Of a DNA stretch of 64,000 nucleotides, positions 61,374-64,000 are shown piece after piece (position 1 is the first letter of the stretch; the number at the start of each line of letters is the position of its first letter). The notes below the pieces were generated by a model, which did not search any database, was not told the DNA's origin, and saw nothing but the letters and a program-made list of their open reading frames with translations. A program made the position numbers and the translations under genes. The DNA comes from a virus, in IMG/VR virus record IMGVR_UViG_3300045988_147738, positions 102,432-166,431 of that record; one strand, written 5' to 3'.

Positions 61374-62729
61374 GCGGACTCCACAATTATTTACCTCCAA
61401 TCCATTTAAAACTTTGTCTTTTAAATCTAATAAATATTGTTTATCAATAGAAGATAAATGCGTATTATCAATTATATTTTTATTAAATAAACCTAATGAA
61501 TTATATTTATAAAGTAAAAAAGAATATTTAGCTTTTTGCATATCACAATTTTCTTTAATTGGGATAAGAGGATTCATAGAATTTTCATAAGCATTTCCTA
61601 AACAAAATAATTCACAAATACCAACGAATTGACAATTTTCACAATGAGGTAGACAACTTCTACGTAAATGAGTTTTAAGAATAATTAAAGAAAGATTTTT
61701 TGGATTACAATTTAATATTTCGCCCTAATCATTTAATTCATATTGTCCAATAATTAAATCATCATAATAAAGTCGATGGCATAAACCGATAGATAAATCT
61801 CCTATTCTAATTGGTAAGACCTAAGAAAAAGAGCAATCTATGAAATCTCGATTATTTGTAAAATTAGTGGTTTTTTTAATAGCAAAAGGTTGATATAATC
61901 CACCATTTAAGCCTTGGCCAGTAAAAATACTATCGGCAAATTTTACTAAATCATTATTATAAACATTTTTAATTCTATAATCAATAACAAAATCACAAAA
62001 TTTAATTAAATCGGCAATAGATTCAGTAGTCCAAGTTTCATCTCTTACTTCTAAAGACATCATATTATCAGCAATTTTTTTAGGAGCATTCTCTTGCCAC
62101 CATAAATAATTATCAATCCAATATTTTACATTATTTGAACTAATCATAGGGTGAATACCAAAATCATTTTTATCTAAAAAATTAATTAAATTTTTGTAAA
62201 ATGTATCATTAACTTCAGTCCGACCAAAATCACAAATTTTTCCATCTACGCTAGCAGAAAAAATTAATGAAATATTTAAATCTTTTTTAAATCGATCAAT
62301 TTGTTTCTAAATATAATCTGTTAATTCTTTATTATAAATAAATAACATATTATCTGGAAAAATAATTAAAGGAGGGCGTGCATTCGGCAAAGCATTATTA
62401 AAAATATTATATGTAATATCAAAAATTGGAATACATAAATCAGTAGTTATCCATTCTCCACTAAAAAACTCTAACTAATTATGAAATTTATTCTTTGTAT
62501 ACCATTTTAATACTTTTTCATAATTTTTTAAAATATTTTCTTTAGATTGTAATTCTATGGGATATAATTCTTGTCCATGTTTTTTTAAATAACAATATTC
62601 ACAATTAGCTTTACATTTACCCAATAAAAATAATTCTAAACGTCCTTCTCCTTGTCTAAATTTACTATAATAATGTCGTTCTAAAATATCATTTAATAAA
62701 ACTTTATCTTGCATTAAAAAATTTTTCAT
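61374..62729 (-). CDS. Radical SAM enzyme with C-terminal SPASM/twitch-like Cys-rich domain; about four in-frame TAG codons
   Basis: N-terminal LGKCKANCEYCY (CxxxCxxC); the C-terminal half …RRSCLPHCENCQFVGICE… lies past two TAGs. Track ORFs 62475..62729, 61821..62147 and 61371..61577 belong to one frame. Confidence 0.5.
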
Positions 62730-64000
62730 AGATTGTCCTCATCTTCTATTGGTCTTTCTAATCGATTCATTTTTAAGGTGTTTAAATTTTTACCATAATG
62801 GTTAATATTATATTTAATTTGTGCGCTATCTTGCTCATAAATTAAATCAGTTATACCATTAAAATATTTTCTAAAAGTTGATGGACTACAAATAAAAGGA
62901 TTATGAGTTTCTATTGTATTATCTCTAGTACAATACTATAAAACTAAAGTATTAGTTAAATGCTATAAAGCTTTTTCAGGGTCTAAGTGAAAACTATATG
63001 GAATCTATTTAGATAATGCGAGCTCATCTAATAAACCTAAATTTAAATTTCTATATATTGCTGATACTCCTCTAATACCACCATCTGAAACATACCAATG
63101 ATAATTCTCTATTTCTTCTGGAGTTGCATTAATTGGATTAAAATAATGTTTTTTGCGAATCTAGGAAATTTTATATTGTTCTAAATCATTATTTTCTTTT
63201 AATTCTTTATTATATTCTTCAAAATCACAAATATAACTACTTGAACATTCAGCAATAGTTCCATCTGGTAAAATGGTAAATGTTTTATATCCACTTTCTC
63301 CACACTCTAAACCCACATTATCTAAATGAGTAAACTATTCATATCCTCCAATAGTAGCATAAGCTGGATTATTATCATCTTCTGGAGTAATAGTGTGTTT
63401 AACATATTCAAATAATTTAACACAATTTGCTAAAGCCATACCTTCTTCTAATGTAGAATTATGAGGGCTCGCAATAGCAGGAAATCCAAAAGATAATGGG
63501 AAAAAACAAGCTTTATTAAAATTTCTATTATCAAATTCTTGAATAAGATTCAACATTTCTTTATAATATTTAGTAATTTTATCATACGTATTTAATTCTT
63601 TTAAAATTACTTCTTGAGAAATAACTGGATGAAATAAGAAATTAATCTATATATGTTTTAATTTTATTTTATTTATCTAATCAAAAAATAAATCCATATT
63701 TTTTATATATTTTTCTACAGAACCTGGATGGCCTTGTTTATTAATTTCTCCATTTAAACCATCAATAGACAACTAAAGATTAAGAGTAAATTTTTTATTA
63801 CTTTTACAATCAATTTCTTTTATGAAATCTATTAAATCATTAATTGGGGTTATAGTCCAATTCGTCGATAAGAAAAAAGTGTTTAAATTTTGAAATAAAT
63901 TTAATAAAATTTCTAAATTTGGAGTAATTAAATGAATCCCTAAAGAAGGTTCTCCTCCCCAAATTTCTATAGTATTAATTTCTGCTGTATCAACATTCAT
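62726..64000 (-). CDS. Second radical SAM/SPASM-type enzyme; N-terminus beyond the window end; several in-frame TAG codons
   Basis: …IEIWGGEPSL… (radical SAM GGE motif) and …CGESGYK…CSSSYIC…; its TGA overlaps the downstream ATG as ATGA. Confidence 0.4.

Follow-up and report, generated by a model that had tools for sequence, protein, structure and literature searches.

What do two adjacent genes for radical S-adenosylmethionine (SAM) enzymes do in a large gut phage, next to an array of transfer RNA (tRNA) genes? The question is raised by positions 61,374 to 64,000 of a 64,000-nucleotide stretch of viral DNA (positions 102,432 to 166,431 of IMG/VR record IMGVR_UViG_3300045988_147738), which we refer to as a whole as the window. 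An earlier interpretation of the window (the sequence-only reading) had seen two SPASM-type radical SAM genes there and a small open reading frame (ORF) after them. It had proposed that they belong to the maturation of a cofactor or of a RiPP (a peptide that is ribosomally synthesized and then post-translationally modified) or, alternatively, that they modify RNA or tRNA. Our analysis finds three coupled genes at this end of the window, A, B, and C, of which A and B are predicted to encode two different radical SAM enzymes. In related phages the genes follow a gene for a protein with a conserved N-terminal domain and a hypervariable C-terminal tail (the tail protein). We consider it probable, if by no means certain, that this co-encoded protein is post-translationally modified by the products of a late-expressed, TAG-recoded operon of about 10 kb, whose distal part A, B, and C make up. 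In other words, they would form a RiPP-like maturation cassette.

The recoded genes A, B, and C

Under the standard genetic code, positions 61100-64000 break up into minus-strand fragments of 30-108 amino acids, with A and B each split into 3-8 pieces. All of the interrupting stops are TAG, eight in A and four in B. Two of the eight in A fall on columns where its family has an invariant Gln (LQLSIDG, SGQI), and one of the four in B aligns with a position where 28 of 51 sequences have Q. The window also encodes a suppressor tRNA with anticodon CUA (46959..47030, minus strand), which is part of a 24-gene tRNA array. Judging from these features, the window phage reads TAG as Gln. Once TAG is taken as Gln, A and B become two intact genes overlapping in ATGA. 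Hence, TAG recoding sets the gene boundaries, and the fragments become three coupled minus-strand genes. The earlier picture of two adjacent minus-strand genes was correct, but it overlooked the recoding that defines their boundaries. Phages with genetic code 15 have been documented in the human gut (PMC9523058; bioRxiv 10.1101/2021.08.26.457843).

Gene B (61371..62729, minus strand) is complete. It starts at an ATG (62727..62729) that follows GAGGA, ends at a TGA (61371..61373), and encodes 452 amino acids. Residues 39-46, CKANCEYC (62592..62615, minus strand), are its CxxxCxxC motif for a [4Fe-4S] cluster, in which C39, C43, and C46 are at least 90% conserved, and its GGE-type SAM-binding motif is FSGEW. 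The SPASM region (61545..61835, minus strand) has the pattern C299-X17-C317...C363-X2-C366-X5-C372-X3-C376...C395, which is predicted to bind two auxiliary [4Fe-4S] clusters; its CX2CX5CX3C part lies in CLPHCENCQFVGIC (61602..61643, minus strand). All seven SPASM Cys are invariant among 51 aligned homologues. In the full-length family, 206 of 211 members have CxxxCxxC and 210 of 211 have CX2CX5CX3C. A word-indexed search returned 77 clusters at 90% identity, among them the orthologue P0001, which is 99% identical to B. An exhaustive search returned 1,129 representatives at E ≤ 1e-3, of which 416 reach E ≤ 1e-30. All family members are metagenomic and none is named.

The B-family profile matches TigE (8VPO, 3.2e-6) and CteB (5WGG, 4e-5) in the PDB, and the alignments span both the cluster-binding N terminus and the SPASM region. 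We modeled B as P0001 with AlphaFold2 (AF2), which gave a predicted local distance difference test score (pLDDT) of 92.5 and a predicted template modeling score (pTM) of 0.91. With this model, Foldseek finds anSMEcpe (1.5e-8), TigE (1.1e-7), CteB (1.9e-7), BlsE, and SuiB, all over about 430 columns. Among the curated models, the SPASM model TIGR04085 matches 44 of the 51 B members at E ≤ 0.01 (the window's own B has E = 0.063), and PF04055 matches 11 of 51 at the same threshold (best 2.2e-6). More specific NCBIfam models are also matched, all far below their cut-offs: QhpD by 40, PapB by 29, a nif11-peptide maturase by 18, HxsB by nine, SCIFF and anSME by eight each, and HxsC by one of the 51. 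The best E-values, 2e-13 for PapB (NF047865), 8e-11 for QhpD (TIGR03906), and 6e-8 for SCIFF (TIGR03974), correspond to tens of bits, and none reaches the curated equivalog cut-offs of 340, 453, and 425 bits, respectively. P0001 itself has no match to PapB, QhpD, SCIFF, or any other NCBIfam model at E ≤ 0.01. By its motifs and its modeled fold, B is a true radical SAM-SPASM enzyme.

With B as the tblastn query, 50,697 GenBank phage records gave no hit at E ≤ 1e-3, and megablast against GenBank phages was also without a match. No relative was found in the GTDB representative genomes with a 13-sequence B alignment, a scan that used two peptide patterns only. Because of these two patterns, we treat the result as a weak negative on a bacterial or prophage origin.

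Gene A (62726..>64000, minus strand) is cut by the end of the window, which covers residues ~56-479 of ~479. Its TGA stop (62726..62728) overlaps the ATG of B. The frame runs past base 64000, and in relatives it continues for 55 further codons up to a GTG start. Here lies the upstream motif of A, CNLRCSFC, within VGRINKICILSGSNCNLRCSFC. It is seen in L008, an IMG/VR contig 98.1% identical over the last 3 kb of the window, and in L001-L003, ENA contigs with 96% identity (related loci are numbered L001 onward). The sequence-only reading had suggested looking for the CxxxCxxC of the second enzyme beyond position 64000, and had named its absence as a refutation; in these relatives the motif is found there, and the refutation fails. 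The window part of A starts with IEIWGGEPSL. It contains the SAM-binding "GGE" motif WGGEPS (63944..63961, minus strand), whose W71, G72, and E74 do not vary among members of the A family. Further downstream, CGESGYKTFTILPDGTIAEC (63245..63304, minus strand) is a CX13GX4C beta-hairpin at the start of the twitch/SPASM domain and aligns to C291, D303, G304, and C309. The third conserved Cys (62930..62932, minus strand), within QYCTRDN, aligns to the invariant C413.

Of the A family, 20 clusters were found and 18 aligned; residues are numbered after P0079, the nearest paralogue (37% identical). The family invariants are WGGE, the hairpin pair C291/C309, and C413. Hence, the seven-Cys SPASM motif is lacking in A: CX13GX4C is present, CX2CX5CX3C is absent, and three Cys in the C-terminal part are invariant. 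These three would serve as ligands of a single, twitch-like auxiliary cluster. The A-family profile matches TigE (2.9e-8), ChlB (9GM3, 5.7e-4), and SkfB (0.014) in the PDB, and anSME as well, and PHROG 1802 ("radical SAM domain") matches the window's A at 6e-7. In NCBIfam scans of A members, PapB was matched by 16, YhhB by 15, a twitch-domain model by 12, and HxsB weakly by five of 18. The twitch-domain model, N_Twi_rSAM (NF033640), reaches 5e-11 at best, over the radical SAM core only and far below its cut-off of 170 bits. For YhhB (NF041707), the A family scores 36.5 bits against a cut-off of 445, which leaves A outside this cyclophane family. Several A homologues have precomputed PF04055 or PF13353 matches. 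The window copy of A is without its N terminus, and we modeled A through P0079. This AF2 model has a pLDDT of 87.3, and its best fold matches are SuiB and EpeE. The models of P0001 and P0079 align over 400-450 columns to radical SAM crystal structures.

The profiles of A and B are homologous to each other over the radical SAM core only (hhalign probability 96.6%, 162 columns). Because homology is confined to the core and the Cys patterns are distinct, we class A as twitch-like and B as SPASM. By these patterns, A is a radical SAM enzyme whose C-terminal domain resembles a twitch domain; it is not a SPASM enzyme. All the motifs on which the sequence-only reading was built (CKANCEYC; IEIWGGEPSL; CLPHCENCQFVGIC; CGESGYK...CSSSYIC) are indeed present on the minus strand. 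Its claim of two SPASM-type enzymes holds for radical SAM membership of both and for the SPASM domain of B, but not for A with its three C-terminal Cys.

The small ORF is real, too. Gene C (61100..61384, minus strand) encodes 94 amino acids, starts at a GTG (61382..61384) after GGAGG, and overlaps the end of B by 14 nucleotides. An orthologous gene of 82-130 amino acids follows B in most loci (C' of L001, L005-L007, L011-L014, L016, L021, and L022). The family alignment shows the common motifs (I/L)DYEK(L/I)IY and K.K..I..NY..KQKL. Neither Pfam, PHROGs, nor the PDB sequences contain a relative of C, the last also by profile search.

These genes hold a lesson for annotation. The standard code shreds them, and even code-15 gene callers start A at the wrong codon and miss C. 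In the public code-15 calls for L001 (L001:8733-10004, L001:11359-11862), A is mis-started and the GTG-started gene C of the second triad is uncalled. The public call begins A at an internal ATG, equivalent to window base 64000, so that 55 N-terminal residues with the CxxxCxxC motif are lost.

The named relatives that profiles and models find for A and B are peptide or protein maturases: TigE, CteB, anSME, SuiB, and ChlB, and more weakly PapB, QhpD, and YhhB. From this similarity, A and B are assigned to the supergroup that modifies peptides and proteins, and neither is a member of any named family. To this extent the proposal of a RiPP maturation locus is supported.

One could argue that A and B are sulfatase-maturating enzymes of the anSME type, which would activate a sulfatase or another enzyme by converting Cys or Ser to formylglycine, with the small neighboring gene unrelated. 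Among PDB structures, B is closest in fold to anSMEcpe (1.5e-8), its top match in BFVD carries the annotation "arylsulfatase regulator," and the anSME model TIGR03942 is weakly matched by eight of the 51 B members. Yet this signal is weaker and rarer than that of QhpD, PapB, and SPASM, with all of them far under cut-offs, and no sulfatase gene occurs in any locus. Furthermore, anSME acts alone, whereas here two different radical SAM enzymes are coupled with C, and the (C/S)xPxR target motif is not common to the tails described below. The anSME idea is thus very unlikely. We rejected it for want of a sulfatase gene and for a hidden Markov model (HMM) signal below that of the cross-linking maturases.

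The hypervariable tail protein

If A and B modify a peptide or protein, is there a substrate nearby? We compared the neighborhoods of B homologues from 13 distinct phage contigs, most of 140-240 kb and some shorter. Most contigs are human-gut metagenome assemblies, judged from the sample sources of all but the IMG/VR contigs L009/L010 and L016-L024. Three genetic codes occur among the related contigs: the standard one, one that reads TAG as Gln, and one that reads TGA as Trp. The invariant core of the loci is a small protein followed by A and B, usually then C. The gene directly upstream of A encodes 100-270 amino acids in L001, L005-L007, L010-L012, L014, L016, L017, and L020-L022 (13 distinct loci).

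The protein encoded by this upstream gene consists of two very different parts. Its N-terminal domain (N-domain) of about 110 amino acids starts with MA..., contains D(F/L)N.LF.KLE.(I/V)R..H and LI.AA..N, and ends at a conserved Cys. The C-terminal tails are wholly different among phages: hypervariable, of low complexity, with short repeats or Cys-rich stretches. Repeats include NST/NGTNF in the lineage of the window phage and GNFTS, YGTRYDSR, GFNSGNY, (S/G)(Y/W)(N/D)SS, TYNxT with His, and Cys-rich G/S/T/N elsewhere. In one subfamily, all N-domains measure 106 amino acids and are 63% identical, and the tails are 29% identical and 69-96 amino acids long. Tails consist of 45-71% G/S/T/N/D/A, up to 34% aromatic residues, up to 14% Cys, and almost no aliphatic residues. 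Even among strains of the window phage, the protein varies between 169, 176, and 189 amino acids according to repeat number.

An HMM of six N-domains found the upstream ORF in nine loci that were not used to build it, with E-values from 9e-21 to 3e-9 (L013, L016-L019, and L021-L024, which represent four distinct cassettes). The same HMM found nothing within the window. The N-domain has no relative in Pfam, PHROGs, or the PDB sequences. Families of RiPP precursors are marked by a conserved leader followed by a hypervariable core, and the tail proteins appear to fit this pattern, albeit with an unusually large leader. The sequence-only reading had suggested a short precursor peptide with a Cys/Gly-rich core nearby. 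A variable Cys/Gly/Ser-rich C terminus is the universal neighbor of the enzymes in related phages, but it belongs to a protein of 100-270 amino acids and lies outside the window.

The tails also bear on cofactor maturation, the second half of the maturation proposal. Here we widen it to enzyme subunits: A and B would mature a subunit or a redox cofactor in the manner of PqqE/PqqD, MftC, or QhpD. In its favor, QhpD is the second most frequent named match of the B family, it modifies a protein subunit of about 100 amino acids, and the cluster of the window phage contains an oxidoreductase (an aldo-keto reductase with a ferredoxin domain). Precursors of this kind, however, are conserved at the modified residues, whereas the region here is hypervariable in sequence, length, and repeat type. 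Nor is a dehydrogenase partner conserved across loci. The cofactor or subunit reading, contradicted by the hypervariability of its target, was rejected; we regard it as highly improbable.

Where is the tail protein of the window phage itself? In close relatives, the gene order is tail protein (176 amino acids), A' (461), B' (446), C' (85), proteins of 387 and 379 amino acids, the aldo-keto reductase-ferredoxin protein (364), and then A, B, and C. A', B', and C' form another triad, paralogous to A, B, and C. From this order, it follows that the cluster, with its duplicated enzyme triad, spans about 10 kb and that no more than its last two and a half genes lie in the window. The candidate substrate is the 176-amino-acid protein encoded at L001:1649-2179, about 6.5 kb upstream of A and past the end of the window. 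Both this gene and the N terminus of A are known only from contigs of 96-98% identity. The combination of an adjacent gene, a conserved leader, and a variable core is found in the related loci and not inside the window.

The alternative that A and B modify RNA, tRNA, or DNA (including DNA hypermodification) was prompted by the 24-tRNA array. The cassette abuts tRNA genes in the window and in L001, L006, L013, and L017. Radical SAM enzymes of phages act in 7-deazaguanine synthesis and in thymidine hypermodification. Considering all loci, tRNAs adjoin the cassette in five of 14, and in nine of 14 there is no tRNA within 8-10 kb, whereas the tail-protein gene always adjoins. The family matches include no MiaB, RlmN, Cfr, TYW1, or QueE, and only weak matches to the MoaA and viperin cores. 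A full seven-Cys SPASM domain is characteristic of peptide and protein maturases. Finally, the partner here is a hypervariable protein and not the set of kinases and transferases found in DNA hypermodification clusters. Nucleic acid modification was rejected because of the 5/14 tRNA linkage and the lack of an RNA-modifying radical SAM family among the matches. It is the least probable of the readings that we weighed, and the earlier tRNA-based alternative is not supported.

Motifs of the form Ar-x-(S/T), where Ar is an aromatic residue, occur 9-21 times per tail in L007, L012, L016, L020, and L022, and rarely in L001, L005, and L006. Composition confounds such counts, and for this reason we take neither cyclophane motifs nor sequons (N-x-(S/T)) as findings.

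Accessory genes differ from locus to locus. Genes for glycosyltransferases of family 2 (GT2) or fusions of radical SAM and GT2 domains occur in L006, L013, L016, and L022. The fusions L016:108-2069 (653 amino acids) and L022:2177-3958 (593 amino acids) lie just upstream of the tail-protein gene. The first has Pfam matches to PF04055 (5e-9) and PF00535 (4e-14); the second was judged from its sequence by eye. Immediately upstream of A in the window phage's lineage lies the gene for the aldo-keto reductase, which has a 4Fe-4S ferredoxin domain, and the neighbors of 387 and 379 amino acids are paralogous DxD proteins. As glycosyltransferases, the DxD proteins (387, 379, and 272 amino acids) have no Pfam support; hence, we count only the GT2 matches as evidence for glycosyltransferases. 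In a 224-kb phage contig, a gene for a YcaO-domain protein (L011:9648-11402, minus strand, 584 amino acids) adjoins A-B-C. YcaO proteins are another class of RiPP-type enzyme. L005 encodes extra radical SAM-SPASM enzymes, each beside its own Cys-rich small protein.

Proposed chemistry and fate of the product

How might the cassette work? Radical SAM enzymes cleave SAM to a 5'-deoxyadenosyl radical, which abstracts a hydrogen atom from the substrate. In our proposal, the N-domain of the tail protein would be the leader or recognition part and the hypervariable C-terminal tail the part that is modified. A and B would each bind a [4Fe-4S] cluster through CxxxCxxC, form the radical, and abstract hydrogen from the substrate. 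By analogy with their nearest relatives, they may install intramolecular cross-links in the tail. Two kinds of link seem most likely. Cys thioethers, as made by PapB, QhpD, and CteB, would be plausible for the Cys-rich tails; cyclophanes that join an aromatic residue to a C-beta on Ar-x-(S/T/N/D), as made by ChlB and YhhB, would be plausible for the aromatic-repeat tails. The glycosyltransferases in many clusters suggest that the tail may be glycosylated as well.

A and B probably act as a complex. We infer this from the overlapping, translationally coupled genes, from their constant co-occurrence, and from a clade of B homologues that has no radical SAM cluster motif and still has the SPASM Cys. 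In this clade (P0073, P0075, P0076 at L007:10001-11185, and P0077), CxxxCxxC is lost and all SPASM Cys are kept, and the A homologue beside such a "pseudo-radical-SAM" B keeps its motif. A pseudo-radical-SAM B could be a noncatalytic partner of A that binds the substrate or relays electrons. Neither A nor B has a domain before its cluster motif, which starts at residue 14 in A and at residue 39 in B, and hence neither has a fused RiPP recognition element (RRE). In its place, C may supply substrate recognition, although this is a guess, as is the idea that the aldo-keto reductase-ferredoxin protein supplies electrons.

The best sequence and fold matches are found in the group of the TigE/TvgB cyclopropyl synthases (PDB 8VPO; PMC10878394, PMC9062424), CteB (5WGG/5WHY), and the PapB ranthipeptide maturases. 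B is like them in its CxxxCxxC motif, partial TIM barrel, and seven-Cys SPASM domain, and the substrates of TigE, CteB, and PapB have short repeats or several Cys, as the tails do here. Identity to A and B is only 13-18%, with NCBIfam scores far under the cut-offs. TigE, CteB, and SuiB carry an N-terminal RRE (PMC10878394), unlike A and B. A further difference is that our cassette obligately pairs two different radical SAM enzymes with a small protein, and that its precursor has 100-270 amino acids with a leader-like domain of about 110 and occurs in recoded phages.

A second group worth comparing are the triceptide synthases (ChlB, YhhB, XyeB, and GrrM/OscB; PMC11499958), with ChlB as the second-best PDB sequence match of the A family. 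Many tails are arrays of aromatic-x-small-polar units (YDS, YGT, FNS, WDS, YNS, FTS) that resemble the Omega1-X2-X3 motif. The L007 tail, (YDSR/YGTR)n, may be compared with YDR, the native motif of ChlB (PMC11499958). However, the matches to these synthases are weak and confined to the radical SAM core, A has three auxiliary Cys in place of a full SPASM domain, and the tails of L001, L005, and L006 contain few aromatics and are rich in Cys or N/S/T.

Two side-by-side radical SAM enzymes with a low-complexity repeat substrate are also known from the His-Xaa-Ser system (HxsB/HxsC with the HxsD repeat peptide; TIGR03977-TIGR03979). Here the scores are far under the cut-offs, no locus contains an HxsA-like gene, and the tails are not HXS repeats. 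The Hxs system has been described from bacterial genomes, and the cassette here is phage-borne. QhpD, in turn, cross-links QhpC of quinohemoprotein amine dehydrogenase by thioethers from Cys to Asp or Glu, on a protein of about 100 amino acids that is kept in the assembly. QhpC is conserved and part of a dehydrogenase operon; the target here is hypervariable and has no dehydrogenase beside it.

Radical SAM-SPASM genes are uncommon in phages, but they are not unheard of; the sequence-only reading had called paired SPASM maturases unusual there. The Campylobacter phages CP220, CPt10, and CP20, Erwinia phage Derbicus, and gut Myoviridae ("Fe-S oxidoreductases") also encode radical SAM-SPASM folds (template modeling scores of 0.5-0.67 in BFVD). 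CP220 and CPt10 have 11-12 radical SAM genes with no assigned role (PMC2853527). In contrast to the cassette described here, these genes show no detectable sequence similarity to ours, and no synteny of A-B-C with a tail protein has been reported for them.

What happens to the modified protein is a separate question. In one version of our preferred reading, a RiPP-like molecule would be released, for example a bacteriocin or a signal freed at lysis. The most serious competitor holds that the product is a component of the virion, a small fiber or decoration protein anchored by its N-domain, with a tail that radical SAM cross-links and glycosylation would harden for binding to host or mucus. It differs from the favored reading only in the fate and role of the product. 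In L020 (phrog_38058, 2e-18) and, with a weak match, in L011 (phrog_9729, 1.6e-4), the tail-protein gene directly follows tail-fiber genes, and L011 and L014 have a Gp10_C structural gene and a structural-looking block beside the cassette. Hypervariable C termini are typical of receptor-binding proteins, and no signal peptide, protease, or exporter is apparent. The high TAG density of the cassette points the same way, a feature tied to late and lytic genes. Against a virion role, the cassette of the window phage adjoins replication and tRNA genes and not structural ones, the tails are low-complexity repeats like peptide cores and not folded receptor-binding domains, and the N-domain has no relative in PHROGs or the PDB that would tie it to virions. 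On balance, we see a virion component as a possibility, but not the expected outcome. A more specific version, to which we give somewhat less credence still, is a virion or fiber protein of about 170 amino acids whose hypervariable repeat tail is cross-linked by two radical SAM enzymes and glycosylated by the phage. Such a protein would be a fast-evolving, protease-resistant appendage for the recognition of host or mucus. If this were true, it would be the first case of a viral structural protein matured by radical SAM enzymes.

Whichever its fate, the product is probably made late. Per 100 codons, A has 1.9 TAG, B 0.9, and the tail protein 4.5; most replication genes in the window have 0. According to Borges et al. 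(bioRxiv 10.1101/2021.08.26.457843), stop-codon recoding is associated with late and lytic genes, and by analogy the TAG density suggests late expression of the cassette.

Several observations weigh against a RiPP-like maturation cassette. The tail protein is a candidate substrate named by synteny and homology. In the lineage of the window phage, its gene lies outside the window, with seven genes between it and the window's A-B-C. In L005, L010, and L020, the upstream proteins, the three most divergent ones, are negative with the N-domain HMM and were assigned by position and composition only. A structured "leader" of 110 amino acids is atypical for RiPPs, and the numbers of Ar-x-(S/T) and N-x-(S/T) motifs are in part a by-product of tail composition. 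The examined loci contain no conserved protease or ABC (ATP-binding cassette) exporter and no recognizable RRE. There is a Peptidase_C39_2 gene 6 kb away in L001 that is absent from the window, and a gene resembling the major facilitator superfamily in L010 only. Finally, the window's own genes have diverged too far for annotation from one sequence: A, B, and C have no Pfam match at E ≤ 1, single-sequence scans of Pfam, NCBIfam, and PHROGs are nearly empty, and B alone gives marginal NCBIfam hints (E 0.02-0.1).

To what extent is the cassette new? The literature that we searched on phage-encoded radical SAM RiPP systems yielded no description of it. No curated Pfam or NCBIfam model takes A or B at its threshold, and for C and the tail protein there is no matching family in Pfam or PHROGs. 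What appears new is a RiPP-like radical SAM maturation with a paired-enzyme architecture, a large precursor, and a phage host. If our favored reading is true, then large gut phages with recoded stop codons have a RiPP-like maturation machinery of their own, drawn from enzyme families beyond the curated models; the B family alone comprises more than 400 clusters at 50% identity. There would be a virus-borne branch of radical SAM peptide chemistry, together with a natural library of hypervariable substrates. It also raises the question of whether the product is a weapon freed at lysis or a cross-linked virion appendage.

Other features around the cassette

Downstream of gene C, a perfect 12-bp hairpin with the stem GGTTAAGGAAGA/TCTTCCTTAACT (61017..61048) separates the gene from a split tRNA and is kept in L001. 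It may mark the end of the operon or an RNA-processing site. The tRNA that follows, tRNA-Trp(CCA) on the minus strand, is split just after the anticodon, with its 5' half at 61011..60976 and its 3' half at 60237..~60201. The insertion between them measures 738 nucleotides (60975..60238) and contains an endonuclease-like ORF (60251..~60960) with a PDDEXK_5-like N-terminal part and a C-terminal helix-turn-helix. Rfam shows no intron family in the insertion. The probable explanation is an intron, or the insertion of a homing endonuclease, within the anticodon loop. ARAGORN missed the window copy of this tRNA; in L001, which is 96% identical, the gene is uninterrupted (L001:11721-11795).

The GC content of the window is 34%, and that of the cassette region (60800..64000) is 22-27%. 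A promoter scan gives no useful information in DNA of 23% GC. The AT-rich cassette and the presence of its relatives in phages of three genetic codes may point to horizontal movement of the module. The remaining window is clearly phage, with a DnaB-like helicase, a Sak4-like protein, a topoisomerase II, an RNA ligase, and a Ro-like RNA-binding protein. Several genes for GIY-YIG homing endonucleases (59446..60090, 53357..54142, and 12852..13541, minus strand) are dispersed between tRNA and replication genes and have a low GC content. In-frame TAG codons are distributed very unevenly over the window: these TAG-rich endonuclease genes have 3-6, and the ORF at 34104..34859 has eight.

Two further protein families recur near the cassettes, both with no match in Pfam or PHROGs. 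The first, of about 270-380 amino acids, combines a WNGG(R/S) motif with a Cys motif such as LC.D.CX3C....HY, which takes the form CX3CX3C in several members. It includes L001:1-1081, L016:2047-3186, L021:7624-8550, L017:8243-9133, L012:4518-5438, L022:8387-9319, L005:6132-6935, L005:14167-14997, and L007:11575-12399, and it may represent a further metal or Fe-S enzyme in the pathway. The second, of about 240-266 amino acids with the motif IDHHHDI, is encoded downstream of the cassette (L021:8523-9323, L017:9153-9875).

The tRNA region of the window is a mosaic between related strains, with 87-96% identity and gaps. It also contains host-like auxiliary genes, assigned by correspondence with genes of L001 and all on the minus strand: a sodium:dicarboxylate symporter family protein (52083..53285, PF00375), a papain-like C1 peptidase (50992..51636, PF00112), and a formate/nitrite transporter (50444..50992, PF01226). 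A transporter resembling the sodium:dicarboxylate symporter is also encoded near the cassette of L016.

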